Of a stretch of 64,000 bases of DNA, positions 9,039 through 43,733 are shown piece by piece. Location: NCBI GenBank assembly GCA_035945115.1, contig DASZAN010000123.1, forward strand, positions 28,073-92,072, written 5' to 3'. The stretch is from Stellaceae bacterium. GTDB lineage: Bacteria > Pseudomonadota > Alphaproteobacteria > ATCC43930 > CGMCC-115725. A program made the position numbers and the translations under genes. Under the pieces are notes generated by a model, which saw nothing but the letters and a program-made list of their open reading frames with translations, made no database searches and had not been told where the DNA came from. The stretch's first letter is position 1; every line of letters starts with the position of its first letter.

Positions 9039-9890
9039 TTGCAGGGGCTCGCGCTCGCGATGCTCGCGCTCGCCGCCTGTCAGCCGCTGCCGCATCCCTT
9101 TGCCGATCAGGCGCCGCCGCCGCATGCGGCGATCCTCTCGCCGCGCGACAGCGCCGGGATTCACGTGGAGCGCATCGCCGGCGTTCCCGCGGCGTTTTCG
9201 GACGCGCTTGCCGAATCGCTCGCCGCCGCTCTGCGCGATGCCGAGATTCCCGCGAGCACGGCGGGGGCCAACAAGGCGAGCTATCGCGTCCTGGGCGTCG
9301 CCCATCCCGCTCGTTTTGCCGACGGGCGCGAGGCGATTGCGGTCGATTGGGAACTGCGCGGCCCCAATGAGCGAAGCCTTGGCCATGCGACGGCAGGGAT
9401 TCCCGCCGCCGACTTGTTGGCGGCGACCCAAGAGACTGCCGCCCACGCGCTCGCCGAGCAGGCGGCGCCCGTTATCGCTCGCCTCGTCCAAGAGGAGCCG
9501 CCCGCCGAGGTGGGGGAGCCACGGCTTGCCATCCAGGCGGTGAGCGGCGCGCCCGGCGACGGCGACCGGGCGCTCGCCCGCGCCATCGACGGCGCGCTCC
9601 GCCGCGTCCATGTGCCGCTCGTCGAGAAGCCGGCGGACCAGGCGAGCTTCGTCCTCGCCGGCACGGTCGCCGTGTCGCCGCCGCAAGGGGGAAAGCAGCA
9701 GGTGAGCGTCCGCTGGGCGCTGCTCCGCCCGGACGGCAAGGAAATCGGCAAGATCGACCAGCAGAACGCGGTTCCGGCCGGCAGCCTCGATCATGCCTGG
9801 GGCGACATCGCCTATGCCGTGGCGGAGGCGGCGGCGCCCGGGGTGGCGGCGCTCATCGAGAAGGCAAAGGCGGCGGAAACCGGCTCCTGA
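9039..9890 (+). CDS. hypothetical lipoprotein (two internal repeat halves)
   Basis: Lipobox [11 protein letters not shown] immediately after the REP-like repeats. The start is uncertain (TTG at 9039 or ATG at 9060). No family recognised. Confidence 0.45.
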
Positions 9891-12503: not shown

Positions 12504-13604
12504 ATGGGCTTCAATTGCGGCATTGTCGGCCTTCCCAATGTCGGGAAGAGCACACTCTTCAACGCGCTCACCGCGACGCAAGCGGCGGAGGCGGCGAACT
12601 ATCCCTTCTGCACGATCGAGCCCAATCTCGGCCGCGTCGCCGTTCCCGACGAGCGGCTCGAGGTCGCCGCCAAACTCGCGAAGTCGGCCAAGGTCATTGC
12701 GACGCAGCTTGAGTTCGTCGACATCGCGGGTCTCGTGCGCGGCGCCTCCCGCGGCGAAGGCCTGGGCAACCAGTTCTTGGGCCACATCCGCGCCGTCGAC
12801 GCGATCGCCCATGTGCTGCGCTGCTTCGAGGACCGCAACATCACTCATGTGGAAGGCGCGATCGATCCCATCCGCGACGCCGAGACGGTGGAGACGGAGC
12901 TCATGCTCGCCGATCTCGAGAGCCTCGAGCGGCGGCTCCAAGCGACGCAGAAGAAGGCGCGCGGCGCCGACAAGGAGGCGAAGGCGCAGGCGGCGGTCAT
13001 GGAAGCGGCGCTGGCGCGCTTGCGTGAGGGGAAGCCGGCGCGCGGCATGGCGCTCTCAGCCGAAGAGAGCGCGATTCTCAGGAGCTTCGAGCTGCTCTCG
13101 GCGAAGCCCGTGCTCTACATCGCCAATGTCGAGGAGAGCGCCGCGGCCAGCGGCAATGCGCAATCATCGCGCGTCGCCGAGTATGCGAAAGAGCGGAACG
13201 CCGAGAGCGTCGTCATTTCCGCCGCCATCGAAGCCGAGGTGGCGCATCTCGCCGATGAGAGCGAGAAGCGCGAATTCCTCGCCCATCTCGGCCTCGAGGA
13301 AGCAGGGCTCGCGCGCCTCATCCGTGCGGGCTATCGCCTCCTCGACCTCGTCACCTTCTTCACCGTCGGCCCCAAGGAAGCGCATGCCTGGACGGTGGCC
13401 AAAGGCACGAGAGCGCCGCAAGCCGCCGGCGCCATCCACACGGATTTCGAAAAAGGCTTCATCCGCGCGGAGGTGATCTCATACGACGATTTCGTCGCGA
13501 ACGGCGGCGAGCAAGGCGCCAAGGACGCCGGCAAGATGCGCCTCGAAGGCGCTGAGTATGTCGTGCAGGATGGCGACATCCTCTACGTGCGCTTCAATGT
13601 GTGA
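12504..13604 (+). CDS. ychF: redox-regulated ribosome-binding ATPase YchF
   Basis: GIVGLPNVGKSTLFNALT P-loop, the TGS domain at the C-terminus. Confidence 0.9.
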   Translation: MGFNCGIVGLPNVGKSTLFNALTATQAAEAANYPFCTIEPNLGRVAVPDERLEVAAKLAKSAKVIATQLEFVDIAGLVRGASRGEGLGNQFLGHIRAVDAIAHVLRCFEDRNITHVEGAIDPIRDAETVETELMLADLESLERRLQATQKKARGADKEAKAQAAVMEAALARLREGKPARGMALSAEESAILRSFELLSAKPVLYIANVEESAAASGNAQSSRVAEYAKERNAESVVISAAIEAEVAHLADESEKREFLAHLGLEEAGLARLIRAGYRLLDLVTFFTVGPKEAHAWTVAKGTRAPQAAGAIHTDFEKGFIRAEVISYDDFVANGGEQGAKDAGKMRLEGAEYVVQDGDILYVRFNV

Positions 13605-13711
13605 GGTTCGGGGACGGCTCCTATGCGCATCTCGACCTGGCAACGGTTTTTTTACGCATTTTGACGCAGAATCGTTGAGAAAGCTCCTCTCTCACTGCGG
13701 AGGCTTGGTCG

Positions 13712-35985: not shown

Positions 35986-36084
35986 ACCATTTCCTATTCC
36001 TGGCGGTACGGCCGCAAGCCGCTCCGCCCCTTGCGGGGCGGAGCGCACTTAGATCGGTACTCACCTACTTGCGGCGTTCAGTGC

Positions 36085-37236
36085 TCACGCCGGCTCGGAT
36101 GCCTTGAGGCGTATGAGCTTGCTCAGGAGGGCGTCGAAGCCCTGACCCTCGCCGGCGTGGAGGTCGATCCGACCCACCTTCTCGACCAGCCGCTCGAGGC
36201 TCTCGAGCTCCTTGAGCCTGAGGAGAAGCGGGTTCTCCTCCATGAGCTTGGCGGTGTTGAGGAGCGAGCGCGTCGCCGCGGTCTCTTCCTGTCGGCGGAT
36301 CAAGTTGGCCTTGGCCATCCGCTCCGCCTCCACCACCTTGTTCACGAGCTCGCGGATCTCGCCGGGAAGGATCACATCCTTCACGCCGAGCTCAGTCACC
36401 TCGATGCCGGTCTCGACCAGACGCTCGCGCACATAGGCGCGCAGCTCCGCATCGAGCACGCTCTTGGCCGACAGCACCTCGTCGAGCGTGCGCGCCGCAA
36501 CTGCCTCGCGGATCGCGAACTGCACGAGCCGGTAGAGCCAGCCATCGACGTCGACGACCGCGCTCACCGCGCGCTCGGGATCGACGATCCGGCGAAGCGC
36601 CGTCAAGGTCACGCGCAGTGCGATGCGATCCTTGGTGAGCATCTCCTGCGCCGTGATCTCGACCGCCTGTGGCCGGAGATCGAGACGCTTCACCTCGACC
36701 TTGCGGTTGACCGACCAGTAGGCGTGCCGGCCAGGCGCGAGCCGCTCCACGAGCCGGCCCTCGACGTAGAGGAGGCCCGCCTCGTGGTTCTCGACCACCG
36801 TCTCGGCGAGATAGGGGTTACGCGCCCGCTCGACCAGCGCCAGATGCTGCGGTGCTACCTTCGGATCGCGTGCGACGTCGATGCGCTCGACCTCGACCGT
36901 GGTCGCGACCTTCCAGTAGGCGCGGAGCTGCCACGGGCCAATGAGCTGCGCTGGCCGACCGTCGAGGCTGATGATTGCGACCTCGTCGGCACGCGTCTCG
37001 ACCGCCGTGAAGAGCTCGAGCGCGATGTCCGGCCGCTCGGCCTTGATCACGGCGTAGCGCTCTGGCGGGAACTCGGTGCGCACGACCGGGAAGGTCTCGA
37101 CCTTGAGCTCGCCAAGCGGATCAAAGACGCGGTGACGGCCCGGCGGCAGCACGCGCTCGAGCCGACCGTTGCGCAGCAGAAACGCGCGCTCGCCGTCCTT
37201 AACGATCACCTGCAACACGACAAGGTACCTGGTCAT
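36085..37236 (-). CDS. SPFH/band-7 domain protein
   Basis: Start at MTRYLVVLQVIVKDGERAFLLRNG, then the SPFH core and a long coiled-coil tail. Confidence 0.7.
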   Translation of the reverse strand: MTRYLVVLQVIVKDGERAFLLRNGRLERVLPPGRHRVFDPLGELKVETFPVVRTEFPPERYAVIKAERPDIALELFTAVETRADEVAIISLDGRPAQLIGPWQLRAYWKVATTVEVERIDVARDPKVAPQHLALVERARNPYLAETVVENHEAGLLYVEGRLVERLAPGRHAYWSVNRKVEVKRLDLRPQAVEITAQEMLTKDRIALRVTLTALRRIVDPERAVSAVVDVDGWLYRLVQFAIREAVAARTLDEVLSAKSVLDAELRAYVRERLVETGIEVTELGVKDVILPGEIRELVNKVVEAERMAKANLIRRQEETAATRSLLNTAKLMEENPLLLRLKELESLERLVEKVGRIDLHAGEGQGFDALLSKLIRLKASEPA

Positions 37237-37562
37237 GACACTCTCCACACTTGGCTGCGCGACGGATTTCGCGCGGCTGGCTTCGGATCGAGGAGGGTGG
37301 GTTCCGGACGCGTCTTCCCGCGGGAGGCGGCGGGCCGGGGCTTGAGCCGCACGGGCGGCGGGCACACGTCCCCGCCGTCAGCTCAAGGCATGACGAGCGA
37401 AAGCGCTACCCGACGCCCGCGCGGGCGATATCCACCCCGGCGCAGGGCCGTTCCAACGGTGTCTGGTACGGGCAAGAGGCCTTTCGGCCAAACGACCGGA
37501 CCGCGACTGAAGCGCGCGTCCGGTCCCCCTCAGAGGTGTTCAGTTTTCCAGGCTGAACCGGC

Positions 37563-37636
37563 GCGTAGGAGCGGGAGTCGAACCCGCGACCCGATGCTTA
37601 AAGGGCATCTGCTCTAACCACCTGAGCTATCCTCGT
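37563..37636 (-). pseudogene. tRNA-Lys(UUU)-like gene with a 1-nt defect in the 5' acceptor strand
   Basis: The reverse complement folds as a tRNA (D arm gctc/gagc, anticodon loop CTTTAAG, T arm gcggg-ttcgact-cccgc). However, the 5' acceptor reads cgaggat where cgtagga is needed to pair with the 3' strand. Confidence 0.45.
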
Positions 37637-37639
37637 TTG

Positions 37640-37707
37640 TGCAACCGATCGGACTCGAACCGATGCCTCCGGGTTTCCCCGGCGCTCTTCCCTTGAGCTA
37701 CGATCGC
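37640..37707 (-). pseudogene. tRNA-like gene (Phe-GAA-like) with a truncated anticodon arm
   Basis: Good acceptor (gcgatcg/cggttgc with GU pairs), D arm and T arm are present. The anticodon region is only ccggg-gaaa-cccgg, 3 nt short. Confidence 0.4.
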
Positions 37708-38234
37708 GGCCTTCGTTCAGCGGAACACGAAACGCACAGAGTGCGATCGCGCCAGCCGGGACCCAACGAACCCGGACACGAAGCCGAGCGAAGGGAGCGC
37801 GCTTGTACATGAGTCGCAATCGGCGCACAAGGTGAAAAACGCGCACGACAATTGCTTTCTTTTTCGACGGTGAGAAATTTTCTCGCGACGAGGCCAAAAC
37901 GACCGCTCCATGAAATGTGCAAATGCGCCGTTCATGAAATTCTGTGCTGGAAATTCGAAGACCGTCTGCCGTTCTGAATTAGGAAAAGCCGCCCGATGAA
38001 AAAAATTTTTTGCGAAATGGATTGCAAGTGCCGCGTCGTCCGTTCATATCTAACGCCATGACACAGAGACTGAACATATCATTCGCCAGGACTGCCGCCA
38101 TGTTAGTGGCGACGCGGCCGTGGTATTGCGCGCGCCAATCGCGACCCGAACGTAAATTCGGGACGCGGCACGGCAGCAGCGACGGAGATTCAGCCGGGTG
38201 AGTGCACCCGCATCGACCGAAAGGTTGACTGAAC

Positions 38235-38270
38235 CCCGCCGCGCGCAAGCCCGAGCGGGGTTTTTCATTG
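38235..38270 (+). terminator. rho-independent terminator
   Basis: ccccgc-(15 nt)-gcgggg hairpin followed by TTTTT, sitting in a low-GC segment. Confidence 0.5.
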
Positions 38271-38399
38271 CGGTTTTTCAATGGGCCGACTTGTAGTCGT
38301 GTGGGCTCAGACCCACCTTTGCGCTCAAATTTGGGCGGGCTGGTTTCAAGCGGTCGGATCGAGAGGAGACAGCCATCTCCTCTCGTTCGTCAATTTTTC

Positions 38400-38470
38400 G
38401 GGCCGAGCGCTGGGCGCGGCTGATCCTTGCAAGATCGGAGCGCTGAGTTCGATTCTCAGTCGGTCCACCA
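38400..38470 (+). tRNA. tRNA-Ala(UGC)
   Basis: Acceptor gggccga/tcggtcc, anticodon stem-loop tgatc-CTTGCAA-gatcg, T arm ctgag-ttcgatt-ctcag, CCA encoded. The D arm is short. Confidence 0.6.
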
Positions 38471-38545
38471 GCCTTCGCTCGCTTCGCGAGCTACGGCTCG
38501 GCAAGCCAGGCTCGATTTGACCAGCTAAGCGAGCGAAGGCTGCCG
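38471..38545. repeat. long perfect hairpin (12-bp stem gccttcgctcgc / gcgagcgaaggc) directly after tRNA-Ala
   Basis: Inverted repeat read directly from the sequence. Confidence 0.6.
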
Positions 38546-38607
38546 CGCCGTAGCCCAAAGGGCGGAGGCGGGCTGCTGCCGTGAGCTACCAGAGCAACGA
38601 CATTGGC

Positions 38608-38847
38608 ATGACCTACGTCTATATTCTCCAAAGCATGCAACGGCTCGAGCGGTTTTACGTCGGGGTGACAGCCGACTTTAGATCTCGTCTTCGGAGGCAC
38701 AACGCGGGTGAAGTGTCGCATACGTCGAAATATACGCCTTGGGCGGTGAAGACCTATATCGCGTTTTCGGATGAGACGCAGGCCTATGCGTTCGAGAAAT
38801 ATCTCAAATCGCCGTCCGGAAGGGCCTTTGCGAAGAAGCGTCTTTGA
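38608..38847 (+). CDS. GIY-YIG nuclease family protein (YhbQ/Slx1-like, about 79 aa)
   Basis: MTYVYILQS...RFYVGVTADFRSRLRRHNAGEVSHTSKYTPWAV...FSDETQAYAFEKYLK is a textbook GIY-YIG core. Confidence 0.75.
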   Translation: MTYVYILQSMQRLERFYVGVTADFRSRLRRHNAGEVSHTSKYTPWAVKTYIAFSDETQAYAFEKYLKSPSGRAFAKKRL

Positions 38848-38890
38848 TCGAACGACAAGCCCAGGACAAAACTGGGCACTTACACCGCTG

Positions 38891-39352
38891 CTACTGCCAC
38901 GTTCGTATCTCGTGCAGCCGCGGATCACCCATGTAGATCGCGTCAATGAGCGCGAACACTTGCGGTGCAAGCGGTGTTCCGATGATCTCCGACCGCTTGA
39001 GCGCCGAGTCTGCGAGGTCGCCGTCAGAGGTCAGACGACCTTGAGCGTCAACAACCATGAACTGAGGCGATCCCTCGACAATTCTGTAGTCGAGCGCGAC
39101 GGCATAACGGTCCTGCTTTGTCGCGGAAGCTCCCCACTTTCCAAGTATCAAATCGAAACTTGCGCCGTGATCGGGACGTTGCTCCGCCCAGCCGACGAAG
39201 TACGCGGCCACTGCCGCGCCGCCCCTGTGGATGAGACCCCAGACGCGTTTGGTAGTCGAGCCGCAACAATCACAATGTCCATCGCTCGTGCCACTTTGCT
39301 CGACCTCGAAAGATCGCCAATCGACCGGCCCGTCATTTGGAAGCTCAGACAC
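38891..39352 (-). CDS. hypothetical protein (contains an HCDCCG Cys-rich motif)
   Basis: A 153-aa ORF in a lower-GC segment between the GIY-YIG gene and the tRNA array. No family recognised. Confidence 0.45.
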   Translation of the reverse strand: MSELPNDGPVDWRSFEVEQSGTSDGHCDCCGSTTKRVWGLIHRGGAAVAAYFVGWAEQRPDHGASFDLILGKWGASATKQDRYAVALDYRIVEGSPQFMVVDAQGRLTSDGDLADSALKRSEIIGTPLAPQVFALIDAIYMGDPRLHEIRTWQ

Positions 39353-39494
39353 TTAGCGCTTCGCAGCTAGCCGTTTATCACGTTGCGAGTATAGCTAACT
39401 TCGTGAAGTTAACAGACATCATTTCTGCGTCTGAGCGATCTCTTGGTCGGTATGGGCAGTTCGAAAATCCAGTGCCCAATTGGTCCACCAATTC

Positions 39495-39568
39495 GCGGGC
39501 ATAGCTCAACGGCAGAGCATTGCGTTGCCAACGCAAAGACGAGGGTTCGAGTCCCCCTGTCCGCTCCA
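39495..39568 (+). tRNA. tRNA-Gly(GCC)
   Basis: gcgggca...TTGCCAA...ggttcgagtcc...tgtccgc-t-CCA. Confidence 0.8.
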
Positions 39569-39572
39569 TTTC

Positions 39573-39667
39573 GGTTGTCGGCTCTGGTGAGCGGGTGCGC
39601 CTTATAAGCGCGCGAGAGCGGCTGGACGAGCTGCGACGGGTTGGTTCGATCCCAACGACAACCACCA
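39573..39667 (+). tRNA. type-II (long variable arm) tRNA, anticodon uncertain; loop CTTATAA would give UAU
   Basis: 95 nt. Acceptor ggttgtc/gacaacc, T arm gttgg-ttcgatc-ccaac, CCA. The anticodon stem tgcgc/gcgcg has the loop cttataa. Confidence 0.5.
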
Positions 39668-39671
39668 TTGC

Positions 39672-39743
39672 TGCGGGGTGGCACGGTGCCCGCGTCGGCT
39701 CATAACCGGCGTCGCGTCCGTTCGACTCGGACCTCCGCAACCA
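39672..39743 (+). tRNA. tRNA-Met/Ile2 (CAU) with a reduced D arm
   Basis: Only 72 nt including CCA. Anticodon stem-loop gtcgg-CTCATAA-ccggc and T arm gtccg-ttcgact-cggac. Confidence 0.6.
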
Positions 39744-39746
39744 CTT

Positions 39747-39819
39747 GCCTTTCTGGTGTAGATGGTCTGCACGCCTGTCTGAAGAACAGGAGGTCTCTGA
39801 TCGTTACAGAGGGAAGGCG
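39747..39819 (+). tRNA. tRNA-Phe(GAA)-like with a non-canonical T loop (ATCGTTA) and no CCA
   Basis: Acceptor gcctttc/ggaaggc, anticodon stem-loop cctgt-CTGAAGA-acagg. Confidence 0.45.
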
Positions 39820-39821
39820 CC

Positions 39822-39897
39822 GCGGCGCTTGTAGTTTGGTGACTGCCTTAGCCTTCCAAGCTAATGAGGGCGGGTTCGATTCCCCCGCGCCGCTCCA
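39822..39897 (+). tRNA. tRNA-Gly(UCC)
   Basis: Acceptor gcggcgc/gcgccgc, anticodon stem-loop ttagc-CTTCCAA-gctaa, CCA. Confidence 0.75.
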
Positions 39898-39904
39898 GTT
39901 TCAT

Positions 39905-39981
39905 TCCCAGCGGTCCCCATTGGCAGGGGAACGAGACTGTTAATCTCGTCGCTCCAGGTTCGAATCCTGGGCTGGGAGCCA
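39905..39981 (+). tRNA. tRNA-Asn(GUU)
   Basis: Acceptor tcccagc/gctggga, anticodon stem-loop cgaga-CTGTTAA-tctcg, T arm ccagg-ttcgaat-cctgg, CCA. Confidence 0.8.
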
Positions 39982-40056
39982 TTTAAGCCCGAGCTGAAGC
40001 CAGCCGCCCGGTCTCCAAAACCGCGGCGCGTGGGAGCGTTACCTACCGGGCGTGCC
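39982..40056 (+). other. degenerate tRNA-sized spacer (possible Trp-CCA-like anticodon hairpin cggt-CTCCAAA-accg)
   Basis: 75 nt between two tRNAs. No canonical T loop or acceptor pairing could be found. Confidence 0.2.
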
Positions 40057-40132
40057 AGTGCCGTGGCGGAGTGGTCATCGCCGGGGTCTGCAAAACCTCT
40101 CTATCTGGGTTCGATTCCCAGCGGCACTTCCA
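40057..40132 (+). tRNA. tRNA-Cys(GCA)
   Basis: Acceptor agtgccg/cggcact, anticodon stem-loop ggggt-CTGCAAA-acctc, T arm ctggg-ttcgatt-cccag, CCA. The first nucleotide overlaps the previous spacer's terminal A. Confidence 0.65.
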
Positions 40133-40133
40133 T

Positions 40134-40209
40134 GGTGGTCGTGGACCTCTGGCGAAGTCGGCGCGTCGTGACCGCGCTCAGGCGAGTTCGATTCTCGTCG
40201 GCCACCCCA
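40134..40209 (+). tRNA. tRNA-His(GUG) with an encoded G-1
   Basis: G-1 plus gtggtcg pairs with cggccac-C73. Anticodon stem-loop gcgcg-TCGTGAC-cgcgc; CCA. Confidence 0.75.
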
Positions 40210-40284
40210 GCCCGCATAGCACAGCAGCAGTGCAGCCGCCTTGTAAGCGGAAGGCCGTGGGTGCAAATCCTACTGCGGGCACCA
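40210..40284 (+). tRNA. tRNA-Tyr(GUA) with a SHORT variable arm (type I), T loop TGCAAAT
   Basis: Acceptor gcccgca/tgcgggc-A73, D arm gcac/gtgc, anticodon loop CTTGTAA, 75 nt. Confidence 0.55.
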
Positions 40285-40291
40285 GATTGAT

Positions 40292-40368
40292 GGCGGATTA
40301 CGGCGTGGTCGCCGCGGCCGGCTCTGACCCGGCTTGATTAGAGAGTTCGATTCTCTCGTCCGCTGCCA
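40292..40368 (+). tRNA. tRNA-Gln(CUG)
   Basis: Acceptor ggcggat/gtccgct (two GU pairs), anticodon stem-loop gccgg-CTCTGAC-ccggc, T arm gagag-ttcgatt-ctctc, CCA. Confidence 0.7.
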
Positions 40369-40370
40369 TG

Positions 40371-40442
40371 ACGCGGGGCCTCTAGCGAGGGCGCCGGCCT
40401 TTGAAGCCGGCCAGATCGGTGCGATCCCGGTACCCGCTGCCA
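40371..40442 (+). tRNA. tRNA-Gln(UUG)-like, with poorly paired acceptor and T loop TGCGATC
   Basis: Anticodon stem-loop ccggc-CTTTGAA-gccgg is perfect and CCA is present. The acceptor pairing could not be satisfied. Confidence 0.45.
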
Positions 40443-40447
40443 ATCAT

Positions 40448-40523
40448 GTCCCATTCGGCTACTGGCTAGGCCGCCACCCTCTCAAGGTGGAAAAGGCGGG
40501 ATCGAAACCCCCATGGGACACCA
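40448..40523 (+). tRNA. tRNA-Glu(CUC)
   Basis: Acceptor gtcccat/atgggac, anticodon stem-loop ccacc-CTCTCAA-ggtgg, CCA. Confidence 0.75.
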
Positions 40524-40527
40524 ATTC

Positions 40528-40604
40528 GCGCGCGTATCCCAACAGGCAGAGGAACAACGTTGAGAGCGTTGACAGTGCGCGTTCGAATCGCGCCGCGCGC
40601 ACCA
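40528..40604 (+). tRNA. tRNA-Leu(GAG) with a short (5-nt) variable arm
   Basis: Acceptor gcgcgcg/cgcgcgc-A73, anticodon stem-loop caacg-TTGAGAG-cgttg, T arm gcgcg-ttcgaat-cgcgc, 77 nt including CCA. Confidence 0.55.
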
Positions 40605-40606
40605 GA

Positions 40607-40684
40607 GGGCCGGTAGACCAATCGGTAGGAGTCATCGCGCTTAGAACGCGAGCAGTGTGGGTTCGAATCCCTCCCGGCCTACCA
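40607..40684 (+). tRNA. tRNA-Leu(UAG) with a short variable arm
   Basis: Acceptor gggccgg/ccggcct-A73, anticodon stem-loop tcgcg-CTTAGAA-cgcga, CCA. Confidence 0.55.
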
Positions 40685-40690
40685 TTTTAC

Positions 40691-40779
40691 GGAAGGTGCC
40701 GCTGAAAGGCCGGCAACTGGTCTTGAAAACCAGGGTAGCGTGATGAGCGCTAAGGGTTCGATTCCTTCACCTTCCGCCA
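40691..40779 (+). tRNA. tRNA-Ser(UGA), type II
   Basis: Acceptor ggaaggt/accttcc-G73, anticodon stem-loop ctggt-CTTGAAA-accag, a long variable arm, CCA. Confidence 0.8.
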
Positions 40780-40782
40780 TTT

Positions 40783-40870
40783 GGAGAGTCAATCGGCGAG
40801 GTCGCCGAGCGCGCCTGCTAAGCGCGGCGCCGTTCGCGTGGCCGGTGAGTTTCGATTACTCGGCTCTCCG
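40783..40870 (+). tRNA. tRNA-Ser(GCU), type II, no encoded CCA
   Basis: Acceptor ggagagt/gctctcc-G73, anticodon stem-loop cgcgc-CTGCTAA-gcgcg. Confidence 0.75.
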
Positions 40871-40872
40871 CC

Positions 40873-40946
40873 GCTCGTGTAGCTCAATGGCAGAGCAGCG
40901 CATTGGTATCGCGCCGATTGCGGTTCGATCCCGCACATGAGCTCCA
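40873..40946 (+). tRNA. tRNA-Thr(GGU)
   Basis: Acceptor gctcgtg/catgagc, D arm gctc-aatggca-gagc, anticodon loop TTGGTAT, T arm tgcgg-ttcgatc-ccgca, CCA. Confidence 0.8.
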
Positions 40947-40951
40947 GTTTC

Positions 40952-41044
40952 GGGAGACGCCAATAAGGTCGGGCTGGTGCCGACGCCGCGCTGTAAACGC
41001 GGTCCCGCACGGGCAAGAGGTTCGATTCCGTCCGTCTCCCACCA
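40952..41044 (+). tRNA. tRNA-Tyr(GUA), type II (canonical bacterial form)
   Basis: Acceptor gggagac/gtctccc-A73, anticodon stem-loop ccgcg-CTGTAAA-cgcgg, variable stem cccg/cggg, CCA. Confidence 0.65.
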
Positions 41045-41045
41045 T

Positions 41046-41118
41046 GGGCCTCTCGTCCAATGCAGGACACGCGCCTGATTAGCGTGGAATCGCAGTGCAA
41101 ATCTGCGGGGGCCTACCA
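41046..41118 (+). tRNA. tRNA-Ile(GAU), T loop TGCAAAT
   Basis: Acceptor gggcctc/ggggcct, D arm gtcc/ggac, anticodon loop CTGATTA, T arm cgcag-tgcaaat-ctgcg, CCA. Confidence 0.75.
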
Positions 41119-41124
41119 ATTCCG

Positions 41125-41199
41125 GGGTCGCTAACTCAACGGCAGAGTACCCGCCTCTTAAGCGGTGAGATCATGGTTCGAATCCATGGCGGCCCACCA
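41125..41199 (+). tRNA. tRNA-Lys(CUU)
   Basis: Acceptor gggtcgc/gcggccc, D arm actc/gagt, anticodon loop CTCTTAA, T arm catgg-ttcgaat-ccatg, CCA. Confidence 0.75.
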
Positions 41200-41251
41200 T
41201 TGCGCCGAGAGGCGCGGCATCGGCACAGGTCCGCGAGCAGCCGATGCACCC

Positions 41252-41326
41252 GCACTGTGAGCCATGTGGCCGAGGCGCTGCCCAGTCACGGCAGATAGAC
41301 GGGTTCGATCCCCGTACAGTGCGCCA
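41252..41326 (+). tRNA. tRNA-Asp(GUC) (anticodon loop CAGTCAC, A at position 33)
   Basis: Acceptor gcactgt/acagtgc-G73, anticodon stem ctgcc/ggcag, T arm acggg-ttcgatc-cccgt, CCA. Preceded by a 52-nt spacer containing two hairpins. Confidence 0.7.
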
Positions 41327-41333
41327 GTTTCGG

Positions 41334-41408
41334 CGGAGTGTAAGTCAGCAGCAGACGGCTTGCTTTGGAAGCAAGCAGACGGGGGTGCAAGTCCCTCCAC
41401 TCCGACCA
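41334..41408 (+). tRNA. tRNA-Pro(UGG), T loop TGCAAGT
   Basis: Acceptor cggagtg/cactccg, anticodon stem-loop cttgc-TTTGGAA-gcaag, CCA. Confidence 0.75.
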
Positions 41409-41411
41409 TTT

Positions 41412-41483
41412 GCCCTCGCCGCTGAGACGGAAGCGGGTTTCCTAAACCTGCGCAGCGCGGTTTGATTCCGCGCGGGGGCGCCA
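41412..41483 (+). tRNA. tRNA-Arg(CCU)
   Basis: Acceptor gccctcg/cgggggc, anticodon stem-loop cgggt-TTCCTAA-acctg, T arm cgcgg-tttgatt-ccgcg, CCA. Confidence 0.6.
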
Positions 41484-41484
41484 T

Positions 41485-41559
41485 GGGCGCTTAGTAGAGT
41501 GGTCATAACGGCTGGCCTACACCCAGCAGACGGTGGTTCGATTCCATCAGCGCCTACCA
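41485..41559 (+). tRNA. tRNA-Val(UAC) (anticodon loop CCTACAC)
   Basis: Acceptor gggcgct/agcgcct-A73, anticodon stem gctgg/ccagc, T arm ggtgg-ttcgatt-ccatc, CCA. Confidence 0.65.
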
Positions 41560-41562
41560 TTT

Positions 41563-41639
41563 TGCAGCGTTACGCTTCCGGTGAGGCGCCCCGCCTTTCA
41601 AGCGGGAGAGGCTCGGTTCGACTCCGGCACGCTGCACCA
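41563..41639 (+). tRNA. tRNA-Glu(UUC)
   Basis: Acceptor gcagcgt/acgctgc, anticodon stem-loop cccgc-CTTTCAA-gcggg, CCA. Confidence 0.75.
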
Positions 41640-41646
41640 ATTTCCT

Positions 41647-41718
41647 GGCCCACCCGCTGAGACGGACGCGGCGCTTCGAACGCCGCAATGCGGAGTTTGA
41701 TTCTCCGGTGGGCCCCCA
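41647..41718 (+). tRNA. tRNA-Arg(UCG)
   Basis: Acceptor ggcccac/gtgggcc, anticodon stem-loop cggcg-CTTCGAA-cgccg, T arm cggag-tttgatt-ctccg, CCA. Confidence 0.7.
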
Positions 41719-41719
41719 T

Positions 41720-41794
41720 GCGCACGCAGCTCGATGGACGAGCGCCGCTCTGCGAAGGCGGAGGCTGAAGGTTCGATTCCTTTCGTGCGCGCCA
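41720..41794 (+). tRNA. tRNA-Arg(GCG) (unusual anticodon; bacteria normally use ACG)
   Basis: Acceptor gcgcacg/cgtgcgc, D arm gctc-gatggac-gagc, anticodon stem-loop ccgct-CTGCGAA-ggcgg, CCA. Confidence 0.65.
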
Positions 41795-41799
41795 ATTCT

Positions 41800-41871
41800 G
41801 GTCACGTCCCGATGGATCGGGCATCCGCCTTCTAAGCGGGTTGAATGCGGGTTCGAATCCTGCCGTGACCG
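41800..41871 (+). tRNA. tRNA-Arg(UCU), no encoded CCA
   Basis: Acceptor ggtcacg/cgtgacc-G73, anticodon stem-loop tccgc-CTTCTAA-gcggg, T arm gcggg-ttcgaat-cctgc. Confidence 0.7.
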
Positions 41872-41873
41872 CC

Positions 41874-41951
41874 GCGCGACTAGCCCAATTGGCAGAGGCG
41901 GCTCGCTCAAAACGAGCAACGGTCTCGGTTCGAGTCCGAGGTCGCGCACCA
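41874..41951 (+). tRNA. tRNA-Leu(CAA) with a short variable arm
   Basis: Acceptor gcgcgac/gtcgcgc-A73, anticodon stem-loop gctcg-CTCAAAA-cgagc, T arm ctcgg-ttcgagt-ccgag, CCA. Confidence 0.6.
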
Positions 41952-41955
41952 CTGC

Positions 41956-42029
41956 GGGCGTATAGCTGGAAGGACAAGCTGCCGCCTTTTAAGCGGTTGA
42001 TGAGAGTTCGATTCTCTCTGCGCCCACCA
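41956..42029 (+). tRNA. tRNA-Lys(UUU)
   Basis: Acceptor gggcgta/tgcgccc-A73, anticodon stem-loop gccgc-CTTTTAA-gcggt, T arm gagag-ttcgatt-ctctc, CCA. Confidence 0.75.
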
Positions 42030-42034
42030 TTGCC

Positions 42035-42105
42035 GCTCCGGTCGTTCAACAGTAGGATGGCGCCCTCGTAGAGCGCAGATTTCGGTGCAACTCCGAACTG
42101 GAGCT
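42035..42105 (+). tRNA. tRNA-Thr(CGU), T loop TGCAACT, no CCA
   Basis: Acceptor gctccgg/ctggagc, anticodon stem-loop gcgcc-CTCGTAG-agcgc, T arm ttcgg-tgcaact-ccgaa. The last gene of the array. Confidence 0.55.
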
Positions 42106-42110
42106 CTTTC

Positions 42111-43733
42111 TCACGAGTTCCCCAGCACCGTCTCCGCGGCGACATAGCCCCAGGTCATGCACGGGCCGAGCGTCGTTCCGGCGCCGATGGCGCGGGTGCC
42201 GATCGGGTTCGCCATGGCGTTGCCGGCGGCGAGCAAGCCGGGAATGACGGTGTGGTCTTGGCGCAGCGCCTGCGCTCTGTTATTGGTGCGGACGCCGCCC
42301 TTGGTGCCGACGGTCATGAGATCGATGGCCATCGCGTAGAAGGGCGGCTGCTCGATCTTGCCGAGTGCTACGCCCGTCCGGCCCAGCTTGTAGTGCTCCC
42401 ACACGCTTTCGCCACGGTGAAAATCCTCGTCACGGCCCATCTCGCAGAAGCGGTTGAAGCGCTCGACCGTTGCTTTGAGGGTCGCCGCGGGAATGCCGAT
42501 GCGCCCGGCAATTTCCTCTAGGCTCGTTCCCTTGATGACCCAGCCCTTCTCATGCGACGCATACCAGCGGAAGGCCGCGCCGTGCCGCAGGTAGCGGCTG
42601 TCGGCGATGACATAGGCCGGCACATGCAGCAGCTCGCCCGAACTCGGATCGCGCCGGTCGAGCGCCTCGCCCAGATTGTAGGAGAGTTCGCTCACGAAGC
42701 GTCGGCCGTGGCGATCGACCAGGATCGCATGCGGCGCGGCTTGGAAGGTGGCGGGGATGCCGGAAGGCTGGCCTTCATAAGTGACCGGCAGCAGCGGGTA
42801 GATATTGGCTTGATCCATACGGTCGAGCCGCGCACCCGCGGCTTCGGCCATGCGCTGGCCATCGCCCTCGTTGCTGCGCGGACTGCCGATCCGCTGGAAG
42901 CGTCCGCCGAAATGACGCTCGACGAGCGCGGTATTCCACTCGAATCCGCCGGTGGCGAGAAGGACGCCGCGCCGTGCCCGGATCGTCACGGGTTTCCCGT
43001 CGCTGAGCCCCGTCACGCCGACGACGCCACCCGTGCGATCATCGAGCATGAGGCTTTGGGCGCGCGTCGCCAGCAGCAAGCGGCAGGATCGGTCGAGACA
43101 CGCCTTCAAGAGCCCGGCGACGAGCGCGTTTCCTTGGCCGATGCTATCGGTGATCCGCCGCCGCAAGAGAGCCGGAAGGAGTCGGAAGCCGGTTCGCACG
43201 GGGTGGTGATAGGGATCGAGCGCGAGCACCTCTTGATAGGTGAAGATGTGCGGCAGCGTCGACCGCCGGATCCTTTGCGCGTAAGGCCCCAAGATTTTGC
43301 GGCTAAGGAGACGAGGCGAGACCATGCGGCCCACCTTCTTGCCGCCGGCATACTCGGCCATTGGGTCGGGCTCGTTCGTCAAGGCGAAGCGAAGCGGCGT
43401 GTTCTGCTCGACGAACTCGAGCATGATGGGCGCGGTCGCGGCAAAGCGCCGCCAGAGCAAATCCTCGCTGTTGTGCCAACCCGGCGGCGCGGTGGCGCGC
43501 AGGTATTGCAGCGCCTCGTCCGGGCTGTCGCTCAAGCCCGCGGCACGGGCGTGGTGGTTCGCCGGGATCCAGATGCCACCGCCCGACATCGCGCTCGCGC
43601 CGCCGGCAAGCGCCGCTTTTTCGAGGATGGTGACACTGAGGCCGCCGGACGAGGCCCTGAGCGCCGCCGTGAGCCCGGCGCAACCCGAGCCGATCACGAG
43701 AAAATCGGTCTCGATTCGGTTGGGATCGCTCAT
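42111..43733 (-). CDS. FAD-binding dehydrogenase (fumarate reductase/succinate dehydrogenase flavoprotein-like, KstD-like)
   Basis: Start at MSDPNRIETDFLVIGSGCAGLTAAL (GxGxxG). A C-terminal FAD_binding_2 capping motif is present. Confidence 0.75.
   Translation of the reverse strand: MSDPNRIETDFLVIGSGCAGLTAALRASSGGLSVTILEKAALAGGASAMSGGGIWIPANHHARAAGLSDSPDEALQYLRATAPPGWHNSEDLLWRRFAATAPIMLEFVEQNTPLRFALTNEPDPMAEYAGGKKVGRMVSPRLLSRKILGPYAQRIRRSTLPHIFTYQEVLALDPYHHPVRTGFRLLPALLRRRITDSIGQGNALVAGLLKACLDRSCRLLLATRAQSLMLDDRTGGVVGVTGLSDGKPVTIRARRGVLLATGGFEWNTALVERHFGGRFQRIGSPRSNEGDGQRMAEAAGARLDRMDQANIYPLLPVTYEGQPSGIPATFQAAPHAILVDRHGRRFVSELSYNLGEALDRRDPSSGELLHVPAYVIADSRYLRHGAAFRWYASHEKGWVIKGTSLEEIAGRIGIPAATLKATVERFNRFCEMGRDEDFHRGESVWEHYKLGRTGVALGKIEQPPFYAMAIDLMTVGTKGGVRTNNRAQALRQDHTVIPGLLAAGNAMANPIGTRAIGAGTTLGPCMTWGYVAAETVLGNS

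Follow-up and report, generated by a model that had tools for sequence, protein, structure and literature searches.

Bacterial tRNA gene arrays have been described as the "tRNA array unit", defined in Tran 2016 (PMC4758250), and as the "L-array", defined in Santamaria-Gomez 2021 (PMC8421152). Such arrays are on record from every class of Proteobacteria, and horizontal transfer has been given as their source (PMC4758250, PMC8421152). L-arrays were found to be horizontally transferred and supernumerary, often located beside homing endonucleases and silent until translational stress, and were long held to be cryptic (PMC8421152). The array described here, carried on a 64-kb stretch of DNA (the window) from a metagenome-assembled genome (MAG), falls within these published definitions.

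A dense head-to-tail tRNA array had been proposed in the first-pass annotation of this DNA and proved to be real. Default ARAGORN predicted 27 tRNAs in the window, all within 37639-42106, with 25 of them on the plus strand of 39495-42106. Seven additional units were recovered by relaxed ARAGORN or manual cloverleaf reading in seven of the eight gaps between ARAGORN calls, yielding 32 tRNA units head-to-tail on the plus strand over 2,612 bp (39495-42106), a density of about 12 per kb. The eighth gap, 41200-41251, was rejected as a tRNA and is a non-tRNA spacer. Chance is excluded as the source of the array, since ARAGORN found no tRNA in the remaining 59 kb. Adding the tRNA-Ala(UGC) located 1 kb before the rest, as annotated, brings the total to 33 units, with each of the 20 amino acids represented; the units are listed below from 5' to 3'.

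38400-38470, plus: tRNA-Ala(UGC), first of the array family (ARAGORN; no Rfam match)
39495-39568, plus: tRNA-Gly(GCC) (ARAGORN; Rfam 65.9 bits)
39573-39667, plus: long-extra-arm tRNA, anticodon UAU, A73, CCA (ARAGORN)
39672-39743, plus: tRNA(CAU), Met or Ile2, poor D arm (ARAGORN; no Rfam match)
39747-39821, plus: tRNA-Phe(GAA), T-loop ATCGTTA, CC end (ARAGORN; Rfam 44.8 bits)
39822-39897, plus: tRNA-Gly(UCC) (manual cloverleaf; Rfam Sec model 44.2 bits)
39905-39981, plus: tRNA-Asn(GUU) (ARAGORN; Rfam 35.4 bits)
39985-40057, plus: tRNA-Trp(CCA), T-loop AGCGTTA (relaxed ARAGORN; L308 homolog 86% identical including T-loop)
40057-40132, plus: tRNA-Cys(GCA) (ARAGORN; Rfam 55.8 bits)
40134-40209, plus: tRNA-His(GUG), encoded G-1, C73 (ARAGORN; sequence read)
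40210-40284, plus: tRNA-Thr(UGU), T-loop TGCAAAT (ARAGORN; Rfam 61.2 bits)
40292-40368, plus: tRNA-Gln(CUG) (ARAGORN)
40369-40444, plus: tRNA-Gln(UUG)-like unit, defective acceptor stem (no cloverleaf solution)
40448-40523, plus: tRNA-Glu(CUC) (ARAGORN; Rfam 42.6 bits)
40528-40604, plus: short tRNA-Leu(GAG), 77 nt, 5-nt variable loop (ARAGORN; L308 identity 90%)
40607-40684, plus: short tRNA-Leu(UAG) (ARAGORN; top database matches are phage tRNA-Leu)
40691-40779, plus: tRNA-Ser(UGA), long arm (ARAGORN)
40783-40872, plus: tRNA-Ser(GCU), long arm, CC end (manual cloverleaf, 7/5/5 bp)
40873-40946, plus: tRNA-Thr(GGU) (ARAGORN; Rfam 56 bits)
40952-41044, plus: tRNA-Tyr(GUA), long arm, weak T stem (Rfam Sec model 27.4 bits; sequence read)
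41046-41118, plus: tRNA-Ile(GAU), T-loop TGCAAAT (ARAGORN; no Rfam match)
41125-41199, plus: tRNA-Lys(CUU) (ARAGORN; Rfam 58.6 bits)
41200-41251, plus: 52-nt spacer, two hairpins (absent in phage homologs)
41252-41326, plus: tRNA-Asp(GUC) (ARAGORN; L308 identity 81%)
41334-41408, plus: tRNA-Pro(UGG), T-loop TGCAAGT (ARAGORN; L308 identity 91%, same T-loop)
41412-41483, plus: tRNA-Arg(CCU), reduced D arm, T-loop TTTGATT (relaxed/manual reading)
41485-41559, plus: tRNA-Val(UAC) (ARAGORN; Rfam 56.1 bits)
41564-41639, plus: tRNA-Glu(UUC) (ARAGORN, mis-registered; loop CTTTCAA read directly; Rfam Sec model 44.9 bits)
41647-41718, plus: tRNA-Arg(UCG), paralog of Arg(CCU) (relaxed/manual reading; repeat D5)
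41720-41794, plus: tRNA-Arg(GCG) (ARAGORN; Rfam 55.8 bits)
41800-41873, plus: tRNA-Arg(UCU), CC end (ARAGORN; Rfam 36.2 bits)
41874-41951, plus: short tRNA-Leu(CAA), phage-type D arm TAGCCCAATTGGCAGAGGCGGCT
41956-42029, plus: tRNA-Lys(UUU) (ARAGORN; Rfam 58.2 bits)
42035-42106, plus: tRNA-Thr(CGU), last unit (ARAGORN)

The spacers measure 0-8 nt with the 52-nt spacer as the single exception, and nucleotide 40057 is used twice, being both the terminal A of the CCA of Trp and the first nucleotide of tRNA-Cys. CCA was correctly annotated as encoded in most units (29 of 33); three others, Phe(GAA), Ser(GCU) and Arg(UCU), end in CC with the next tRNA directly after, and the last unit, Thr(CGU), has no encoded CCA. 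The array units are matched by the Rfam tRNA or tRNA-Sec models, with only 17 of the 33 passing the tRNA threshold and eight having no match to either covariance model, while a 7-bp acceptor stem and a 4-5-bp T stem are kept in about 29. The annotated anticodon list holds as a near-complete set, including the tRNA-His with encoded G-1 at 40134, but requires correction in its details: Thr is represented three times (UGU, GGU and CGU) rather than twice; only one Tyr(GUA) is present, the other supposed Tyr (39573-39667) being the long-extra-arm UAU tRNA; and the presumed Trp remnant is a complete unit whose odd T-loop is conserved in its phage homolog.

The structural oddities of the array, namely the short tRNA-Leu (all of its Leu tRNAs being without a long arm), the long-arm UAU tRNA, the D-arm-poor tRNA-Arg and the odd T-loops, are of phage type. 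The 17-mer of the short tRNA-Leu D arm was matched in at least 120 viral contigs, in nearly all cases within a tRNA-Leu of 74-78 nt, and the D-arm-poor pattern of the Arg(CCU) type was found in three viral tRNA clusters. Long-arm UAU tRNAs also occur in viral tRNA clusters; that of the window is the best conserved unit of the array family (86% identity to viral contig L308), and five homologs share a 7/5 cloverleaf fold in which 10 pairs covary. The odd T-loops are common to L308. In curated databases, the array tRNAs match best to phage tRNAs and to cyanobacterial L-array plasmids, as exemplified by the L-array of the Nostoc PCC 7120 delta-plasmid, whose Ser(UGA) is 78% identical to that of the window. 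Being common to phage homologs, these unusual features do not represent random damage.

A search with a 19-mer of the UAU tRNA matched four IMG/VR viral contigs, in whose arrays the tRNA genes follow the order seen in the window. This collinearity with viral arrays, unit by unit, is the new point of the present analysis. The window array aligned with L308 at 69% identity over 928 + 986 collinear nt (blastn), with per-unit identities of up to 91%. L307 is clearly a phage, carrying its array between portal and capsid genes in the order portal (E 1.8e-132), homing endonuclease, array, HNH gene, scaffold gene and major head gene (E 1e-76). Thr(CGU) of L308 is directly followed by the start of an HNH gene. 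Pro(CGG) is present in the phage arrays and missing from the window array, whereas the 52-nt spacer is found only in the window copy. The CCA of Thr(CGU) was lost at the chromosome junction; the phage homologs read ACCA followed by the HNH gene. As the array meets the known definitions (PMC4758250, PMC8421152) and its collinearity with phage arrays explains its origin, the earlier suggestion of an uncharacterised accessory translation module is not upheld. Overall identity between the window array and the phage arrays sampled is only about 56-64%, so that we infer rather than observe the direction of transfer.

The Ala-ATTC-Gly junction is likewise common to the window and the viral arrays, the Ala homolog being the first gene in L307, L309 and L310, with ATTC and Gly directly after it. 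The window tRNA-Ala(UGC) displays G3:U70, A73, CCA and a reduced D arm, and the following features surround it.

38333-38399, plus: array leader upstream of Ala, homologous to the region before tRNA-Ala in phage contig L310
38471-38853, plus: GIY-YIG mini-element (Pfam GIY-YIG, E 8e-14)
38891-39352, minus: 153-aa hypothetical protein, GC3 0.64, within the ~1-kb Ala-Gly insert
39457-39494, plus: remnant duplicate of the T-arm and 3' acceptor of tRNA-Ala (…GGTCCACCA) with the original ATTC spacer before Gly (repeat D9)

The segment 38333-38470 matched L310 943-809 (blastn, 64% over 147 nt, E 3e-5), both leaders sharing GGCTGGTTTCAAGCG and a hairpin, and the junction GGTCCACCA-ATTC-GCG is identical in L310. 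The GIY-YIG open reading frame (79-88 aa; start 38581 or 38608, end 38847) is preceded by a leader with a 19-nt inverted repeat, I4 (38469-38487 / 38524-38542). In other contigs the conservation of the mini-element begins exactly after a tRNA CCA and ends about 5 nt past the stop, following single tRNA-Met or tRNA-Val genes unrelated to the array; its habitual location is thus the 3' end of a tRNA. The 153-aa protein has no Pfam, NCBIfam or PHROG match, and its homologs occur in varied chromosomal contexts without arrays. Neither the nuclease nor the hypothetical, the protein genes first noted with the array, is thus specific to it; the two have split Ala from Gly, with tRNA-Ala restored intact after the insertion.

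The array resides in a 4.3-kb low-GC islet (about 37811-42110), bounded on one side by the leader of an SPFH gene and on the other by the stop codon of a gene for an FAD-dependent oxidoreductase. The GC content of its non-tRNA parts is 0.48-0.59 against 0.65 for the window, and its GC3 is 0.64-0.66, compared with 0.82-0.88 for the genes on either side, marking it as foreign in composition. Homology stops at about 37803 with the SPFH relatives and at 42110 with the FAD relative; the array is absent at about 60 SPFH loci of relatives and at the 10 FAD loci examined, nearest relative included. The near-complete array looks accessory, and an insertion between the two genes, as originally raised, agrees with its absence from the relatives examined at either flank. 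The flanking genes are ordinary chromosomal genes and the GIY-YIG protein has a counterpart of 100% identity in a Stellaceae MAG, both in keeping with the alphaproteobacterial replicon named at the outset. No phage or integrase gene was found in the 64-kb window, their lack at the array's flanks having also been noted before, and no recombinase that would account for the insertion was found nearby. Outside the array lies one more feature.

37567-37707, minus: tandem pair of tRNA-like elements, SPFH/Band-7 gene leader (CDS 37236-36085)

These elements (37567-37633 and 37639-37707; Rfam 48.3 and 54.3 bits) had been taken for degenerate tRNA genes. They do exist, but the pair recurs upstream of SPFH in about 69 relatives and displays covariation, and is a tRNA-like leader conserved with the SPFH gene, unrelated to the array, rather than a pair of degenerate array members.

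Taken at face value, coverage of all 20 amino acids and the lack of any other tRNA within the window would suit a normal housekeeping set in one operon, as in Firmicutes. This is extremely unlikely, given that the array has no initiator-type tRNA (its single CAU unit lacks three consecutive G:C anticodon-stem pairs), its Leu tRNAs lack the long arm, barely half of its units pass the Rfam threshold, and its Arg anticodons include GCG and UCG in place of ACG; its low-GC islet, its collinearity with phage arrays and its absence from every relative examined at both flanks argue likewise. It is also very improbable that a phage fragment was wrongly joined to a chromosomal contig during assembly or binning: the source is a MAG and tRNA arrays hold short repeats, but an 11.3-kb stretch over both junctions is 100% identical in the Logan assembly of SRR12347823, the repeats here are imperfect and at most 35 nt, the junctions fall precisely at the FAD stop codon and the SPFH leader, and the islet holds non-phage inserts such as the GIY-YIG mini-element.

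A dead relic, that is, a phage tRNA block from an abortive or decayed insertion, unexpressed and slowly degrading, deserves more attention and is nonetheless judged unlikely. The chromosomal copy shows signs of erosion: the acceptor stem of Gln(UUG) is broken (4/7 pairs, or 5/7 in an alternative manual register, with the L308 homolog intact), making it probably a pseudogene, the T stem of Tyr is weak, the last tRNA is without CCA, Pro(CGG) is missing and a 52-nt spacer has been inserted. The separation of the first gene by the 1-kb insert, the lack of nearby phage genes or a recombinase and the long-held cryptic status of L-arrays elsewhere point the same way, as does the failure to find a promoter upstream of the array, the one sigma-70-like match in 5 kb lying inside the GIY-YIG gene and being no more than expected by chance. 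Against this stand the acceptor and T stems kept in about 29 of the 33 units, the CCA retained in as many, the sharing of the oddities with phage homologs and the restoration of tRNA-Ala. The segment is thus most probably a tRNA array unit or L-array that derives from phages and was acquired horizontally.

For such a phage-derived array, the ancestral unit would have begun with Ala-Gly-X(UAU)-Met-Phe and ended with Leu(CAA)-Lys-Thr(CGU); it exists in uncultured high-GC phages, located among structural genes with HNH homing endonuclease genes at its flanks. A copy of the array without any phage protein gene would have given rise to the present islet between the SPFH leader and the FAD stop codon, and a later ~1-kb insert, comprising a GIY-YIG mini-element targeting tRNA 3' ends and the hypothetical gene, would have cut off Ala. 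All array genes may be transcribed as a single precursor, in which the RNase P cut at each 5' end would also free the preceding 3' end owing to the short spacers (0-8 nt) and the encoded CCA. The product would be an additional tRNA set, divergent in structure, presumably chargeable and serving all 20 amino acids. If the Anabaena L-array and phage tRNA sets are a guide, it may serve as a normally silent reserve, sustaining translation when housekeeping tRNAs run short or are cut, for example under translational stress or by tRNA-targeting toxins or defence nucleases. This soil alphaproteobacterium would provide another example of a horizontally acquired spare tRNA set, a kind already known.

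The dense tRNA array reported in the first-pass annotation proved to be real. ARAGORN at default settings returned 27 tRNA genes in the 64-kb window, all within 37639-42106, of which 25 lie head to tail on the plus strand at 39495-42106; the calls also include an outlying tRNA-Ala(UGC) and a single minus-strand tRNA-like gene, and the Rfam covariance models matched the ARAGORN sites together with an extra minus-strand element at 37567-37633. Eight gaps, each about one tRNA in length, were left between the calls, and seven were filled by Gly(UCC), Trp(CCA), Gln(UUG), Ser(GCU), Tyr(GUA), Arg(CCU), and Arg(UCG) using relaxed ARAGORN settings and a manual cloverleaf search, while the remaining one (41200-41251) holds two hairpins and no tRNA, being the sole long spacer of 52 nt. 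The 25 default calls and the seven gap-filling units thus amount to an array of 32 units in 2,612 bp (approximately 12 per kb), accompanied by the Ala gene upstream. The principal landmarks are as follows:

36085-37236, minus strand: SPFH/Band-7 coding sequence
38400-38470, plus strand: tRNA-Ala(UGC), called by ARAGORN at default settings
39495-42106, plus strand: array of 32 tRNA units
42111-43733, minus strand: FAD-dependent oxidoreductase gene

Every unit of the array is on the plus strand with spacers of 0-8 nt, the 52-nt spacer being the one exception. With Ala counted, CCA is encoded in 29 of 33 units and 20 of 20 amino acids are covered; three units terminate in CC with the next tRNA following immediately. 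Spacers of zero to a few nucleotides and an encoded CCA would fit processing by RNase P only, plus trimming. The anticodons listed in the first-pass annotation were nearly all right, save that there are three Thr genes, that Trp is complete rather than a remnant, and that one presumed Tyr is a tRNA with a long extra arm and the anticodon UAU (hereafter X(UAU)), for which the reading as a second Tyr was unsupported.

The Rfam tRNA threshold was passed by only 17 of the 33 units; eight scored best with the tRNA-Sec model, under its cut-off, and eight gave no covariance-model match, although around 29 units keep a 7-bp acceptor stem and a 4-5-bp T stem. All three tRNA-Leu are short (77-78 nt, variable loop of 5 nt), a pair of paralogous tRNA-Arg combines a TTTGATT T-loop with a reduced D arm, four tRNAs carry TGCAA-type T-loops, and the T-loops of Phe and Trp are of an (A/G)-rich “NNCGTTA” type. 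The lone duplicated pair in the array is Arg(CCU)/Arg(UCG) (repeat D5), with the remaining repeat families representing shared T-arms only.

X(UAU) (39573-39667) displays a long extra arm, a 4-nt D loop, and A73. A consensus fold of five homologs using RNAalifold gave an acceptor stem of 7 bp and a T stem of 5 bp, along with a 6-bp extra arm, a 4-bp D stem, and the 4-nt D loop, and a possible eighth acceptor pair in the copy of the viral contig L309 would be G:A. Its top Rfam model was that of tRNA-Sec, at 33.6 bits versus a threshold of 47. Within the family of arrays collinear with that of the window, neither its D arm nor its anticodon arm varies, the invariant core being GGGTGCGCCTTATAAGCGCGCGA. 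UAU is the commonest anticodon of the allo-tRNAs (Mukai 2017, PMC5389517), and X(UAU) shares with allo-tRNA(UAU) the long variable arm, the 4-nt D loop, the tRNA-Sec-like D arm, and the soil-metagenome context. Unlike allo-tRNAs, which are defined by a 12-bp branch arranged as 8/4 or 9/3, X(UAU) folds as 7/5, and its classification as an 8/4 allo-tRNA found no support in this consensus fold of five homologs. It also bears A73 as the discriminator in place of G73 or U73, and lies inside an array for 20 amino acids, whereas allo-tRNA(UAU) lies next to toxin-antitoxin genes (PMC5389517).

The origin of the array was indicated by a 19-mer from the UAU anticodon arm, which matched four viral contigs in IMG/VR, L307-L310 (UViGs 3300027857_000032, 3300005541_000012, 3300021171_000006, and 3300046012_000505). 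All four carry related arrays with the same gene order as the window array, as exemplified by L309:

Order of tRNA genes in the array of viral contig L309
Start: Ala Gly(GCC) X(UAU) [Met] Phe Gly(UCC) Asn Trp Cys His Thr(UGU) Gln Gln Glu(CUC)
Continuing from Glu(CUC): Leu Ser Ser Thr(GGU) [Tyr] Ile Lys(CUU) Asp Pro(UGG) Arg(CCU)
From Arg(CCU) to the end: Pro(CGG) Val Glu(UUC) Arg Arg Arg Leu(CAA) Lys(UUU) Thr(CGU)

The window array and that of L308 are collinear almost end to end with 69% identity over 928 + 986 nt (blastn), and the best single units (Pro, Leu(GAG), X, Trp, Val, and Leu(UAG)) reach 82-91% identity. The odd T-loops are common to the window and its phage homologs, and are thus family traits rather than decay. 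L307 is a bona fide phage, in which the genes for portal (E 1.8e-132) and a homing endonuclease, the array, and the genes for an HNH endonuclease, scaffold, and major head (E 1e-76) follow one another; in L308, the CCA of Thr(CGU) directly adjoins the start of an HNH gene, beyond which comes a serine recombinase. On the strength of these sequence comparisons, the array appears to have a clear phage pedigree.

Several signatures extend beyond the four collinear contigs. The D arm of Leu(CAA) contains 23 nt identical to the short Leu(CAA) of the Nostoc PCC 7120 L-array, and a 17-mer of this stretch matched at least 120 IMG/VR viral contigs, almost always inside tRNA-Leu genes of 74-78 nt, many in clusters of up to 28 tRNAs; a 21-mer of the Leu(CAA) anticodon arm gave zero matches in viral contigs. 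Viral contigs abound in short tRNA-Leu genes of this kind, 74-78 nt long, with the D arm GCCCAATTGGCAGAGGC and lacking a long variable arm (at least 120 matches, L093-L212); such genes also occur at 40528-40684 and 41874-41951 in the window and at 3910-4446 in the cyanobacterial L-array locus L082, and no description of a short phage tRNA-Leu was found in a literature search. The D-arm-poor Arg pattern is present in three viral tRNA clusters, and seven sampled viral clusters hold long-arm UAU tRNAs; long-extra-arm UAU tRNAs with A73 were observed in the phage clusters of L133, L146, L160, L172, L178, L181, L182, and L307-L310. A whole-array blastn search of curated phages and plasmids returned single-tRNA matches only (≤4% coverage), such that no cultured phage or plasmid in these databases carries the array. 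Comparison of gene order with Nostoc L-arrays and the 120 viral loci bearing the Leu motif gave at most four neighbour pairs in common, and a protein-database search using a spurious ORF spanning seven tRNAs recovered the same contig and no further array copy.

In the chromosome, the array lies in a 4.3-kb islet of which both borders are the ends of conserved chromosomal units, with both junctions mapped to a precision of a few bases. The flanks encode ABC transporters, a GntR regulator, patatin, OsmC, dienelactone hydrolase, pirin, YchF, and an aminotransferase, all ordinary chromosomal genes; no integrase, transposase, or phage genes were found in the window flanks, bearing out the earlier observation on integrase and phage genes, and the adjacent integrase or phage protein genes that would mark a prophage or integrative element are thus missing. 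The GC content is 0.48-0.59 in the non-tRNA parts of 37811-39494 versus 0.65 for the whole window, and GC3 is 0.64-0.66 in the GIY-YIG gene and a gene for a 153-aa protein versus 0.82-0.88 in the flanking genes. A scan of genome contigs for SPFH yielded 80 loci from Bradyrhizobium, other Xanthobacteraceae, Rhodoplanes, Dongiaceae, and others, the close ones having 72-86% protein identity; their DNA homology to the window is confined to 36084-37803 (SPFH and its leader), no array was present within 10 kb of SPFH in the 60 loci scanned for one, and none of the 80 is close enough to reveal an empty site. On the other side, a metagenome scan with the FAD protein gave L216 as the best relative (84% identity), in which homology ends exactly at the FAD stop codon (42110) with no tRNA downstream, and an array next to the FAD gene was absent in 10 loci. 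The ychF homolog (L216 3248-3924, window 12930-13606) stands about 1.2 kb from the FAD gene in L216 versus 29 kb in the window, from which it follows that the region has been rearranged between relatives. In the Xanthobacteraceae MAG contig L017, a small cluster of phage-type tRNAs (145-603) occupies a position relative to SPFH that corresponds to that of the window array: a canonical Thr(CGU), two short atypical Leu (CAG, UAA), and a mini tRNA-like hairpin set, located upstream of the leader and on the other strand. The three tRNAs were considered as a second array at the same site, and this was rejected on the grounds that the cluster is small and that the contig does not go on as an array.

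Homology to phage L310 starts at 38333. Between the SPFH leader and the leader of the array, 37811-38332 (GC 0.55) had no match in anything searched; it holds a possible 47-aa ORF (38059-38202, plus strand) and then a terminator-like hairpin with a T-run (approximately 38235-38275, plus strand). A scan of 5 kb for promoters and terminators was uninformative, its one sigma-70-like match lying inside the GIY-YIG gene and being no more than chance would give. The Ala-Gly spacer of the phages is ATTC, and the window keeps a “…GGTCCACCA ATTC GCG” junction at 39482-39497, upstream of which lies a degenerate T-arm (39457-39490), with the intact Ala 1 kb further upstream. The insert between Ala and Gly comprises a GIY-YIG mini-element (38471 to approximately 38853) and the 153-aa gene. 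Relative to the phage arrays, the window copy is without Pro(CGG) and has gained the 52-nt spacer; its Gln(UUG) acceptor stem is broken, and the CCA of Thr(CGU) is gone where the array meets the chromosome. The 153-aa hypothetical protein (38891-39352, minus strand) has no family match and about 120 soil-metagenome homologs among the matches listed, an 88%-identical one adjoining a convergent tRNA-Met beside rpoD-dnaG (L084 10001-10617; L085); it was dismissed as a marker of the array, its homologs occurring in varied contexts without arrays.

The GIY-YIG gene begins 110 nt past tRNA-Ala and encodes an 88-aa protein consisting of the catalytic domain alone, nearest to UPF0213/SLX1 and 100% identical to a Stellaceae MAG protein. 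Its family counts at least 2,888 highly similar proteins of around 79 aa in soil alphaproteobacteria (metagenomes), and elsewhere the gene is found 127-146 nt downstream of tRNA-Met (L297-L301) or tRNA-Val (L303, L304). A conserved leader with a 19-nt inverted repeat begins exactly past the CCA of the tRNA, and similarity between copies stops about 5 nt beyond the GIY-YIG stop codon. Given these sharp limits and the unrelated tRNA neighbours, the unit looks like a selfish mini-element of approximately 380 bp that resides in tRNA 3′ flanks, and looks to be secondary to the array rather than its vehicle. A phage Seg-type homing endonuclease was also considered and rejected, as the protein is UPF0213/SLX1-like with no homolog among 50,697 phage records. 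In Bradyrhizobium huanghuaihaiense (L015 9031-9225), a weak GIY-YIG homolog (38% identity, E 5e-4) was noted some 280 nt ahead of the tRNA-like pair of the SPFH leader, which hints that the mini-element may also settle by tRNA-like sequences.

The two minus-strand elements (37567-37707), formerly regarded as degenerate tRNAs of the array, belong instead to a separate, conserved, structured SPFH leader. They are situated 330-470 nt upstream of the SPFH start (CDS 37236-36085) on the same strand, and the leader recurs in around 69 relatives (L003-L071; approximately 9500-9680 in loci with 10-kb flanks) from Bradyrhizobium, Rhodoplanes, Dongiaceae, and Stellaceae-like genomes. Element 1 has a complete acceptor stem, with a variable loop of about 3-8 nt (1 nt where vestigial) replacing the anticodon loop. 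Element 2 has an acceptor stem of just 3 bp, invariant D and T arms, an anticodon stem conserved with compensatory changes, and a 7-nt loop with conserved U33 and A37, in which the “anticodon” takes 18 different values. Covariation supports the folds of both elements, which Rfam recognises merely as tRNA; the named leader structure was 89.8% paired versus 36-47% when slid, a level reached by none of 500 shuffles. A literature search found no description of a tRNA-like leader with SPFH.

The earlier interpretation was borne out in part; its suggestion of an uncharacterised module was not upheld, since the region corresponds to the tRNA array unit, defined by at least 20 tRNA genes at two or more per kb (Tran 2016, PMC4758250), in both gene number (25 from ARAGORN at default settings, rising to 32 once the gap units are counted, with Ala in addition) and density, and fits an L-array. 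The term L-array denotes long, non-periodic arrays of as many as 43 genes on one strand, patchy in seven phyla including all classes of Proteobacteria, with supernumerary genes, an assumed horizontal spread, and often an adjacent homing endonuclease gene (Santamaria-Gomez 2021, PMC8421152). The window array agrees in its single orientation and spacing within co-transcription range, in its lack of periodicity beyond the one duplicated Arg pair, and in its patchiness, being absent from the SPFH and FAD loci of relatives, set in a low-GC islet, and collinear with phage arrays. It resembles the trn operon of plasmid delta in Nostoc/Anabaena PCC 7120 in having dozens of same-strand tRNAs with tiny spacers and encoded CCA, in its patchy distribution, ascribed horizontal transfer, and adjoining nuclease gene, and in its short tRNA-Leu, with Ser(UGA) 78% identical, whereas the gene order is unrelated. 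The Nostoc array is plasmid-borne and preceded by an HNH gene, while the window array is chromosomal and neighboured by a GIY-YIG mini-element that is not array-specific. The units of Mycobacterium chromosomes and plasmids, of mycobacteriophages, and of Acidithiobacillus ICEs (PMC4758250; PMC5966550) fall under the same numerical definition and likewise have related arrays in both phages and cellular replicons, a comparison made by definition, with sequence comparison only via the curated phage and plasmid searches; the window array differs in its alphaproteobacterial (Stellaceae) host and its lack of an ICE, plasmid, or prophage context. Among phage tRNA clusters with homing endonucleases (the T4 region with SegB, PMC2330249; L307-L310), the arrays of L307-L310 are homologous and collinear; HNH genes abut the array in L307 and L308, whereas none flanks the window copy, which is without any phage protein gene, and its GIY-YIG protein resembles UPF0213/SLX1, unlike the T4 Seg-type enzymes.

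The best-supported reading is that the array derives from a phage, belongs to the L-arrays, and has been kept as an additional tRNA operon that is probably used conditionally. The Anabaena L-array is silent until translation is impaired (PMC8421152); by analogy, the tRNAs of the window array might act as a reserve against translational stress or tRNA-targeting nucleases, and the idea of an anti-defence role for such tRNAs is to be found in PMC12803027. A mis-assembly is unlikely, the same 11.3 kb across the array having been assembled independently in Logan from SRR12347823. The array is also unlikely to be the housekeeping tRNA set; it does cover all amino acids, and it was found at neither border locus in the relatives scanned. 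A decaying, silent relic has a small chance of being the right description, with the broken Gln(UUG) stem and the lost CCA of Thr(CGU) on one side and the odd T-loops, as traits of the whole family, on the other.

It is decidedly improbable that the array has been domesticated as a self-sufficient set for alternative decoding, as opposed to a redundant spare, with tRNAs refractory to nucleases or toxins and with X(UAU) recoding AUA or acting as a regulatory sensor. In such a scheme, the divergence of the set (short Leu, D-arm-poor Arg, G55 T-loops, and Arg GCG/UCG replacing ACG) would render it refractory, X(UAU), as the most conserved member and with its A73, would be charged by a synthetase recognising class-II arms (Leu, Ser, or Tyr), and, once the array is switched on, AUA codons would be recoded or serve as a regulatory sensor.

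For long tRNA arrays outside Firmicutes, horizontal movement is assumed, yet donor-recipient pairs are seldom visible. Here, the chromosomal array of an uncultured soil alphaproteobacterium is matched gene by gene to arrays of uncultured phages, providing a concrete instance of a phage tRNA block that has ended up in a chromosome bare of phage genes. The comparison also defines a family of phage tRNA arrays, the signatures of which (odd T-loops, short tRNA-Leu, and the conserved UAU tRNA with its long arm) are usable to find further copies. Two by-products are perhaps of independent interest, namely the very abundant GIY-YIG mini-element, invariably placed at tRNA 3′ ends, and the SPFH tRNA-like leader with its hypervariable “anticodon”. 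Should the set be expressed, it would lend itself well to testing whether such arrays protect translation against tRNA-cleaving toxins or defence systems.
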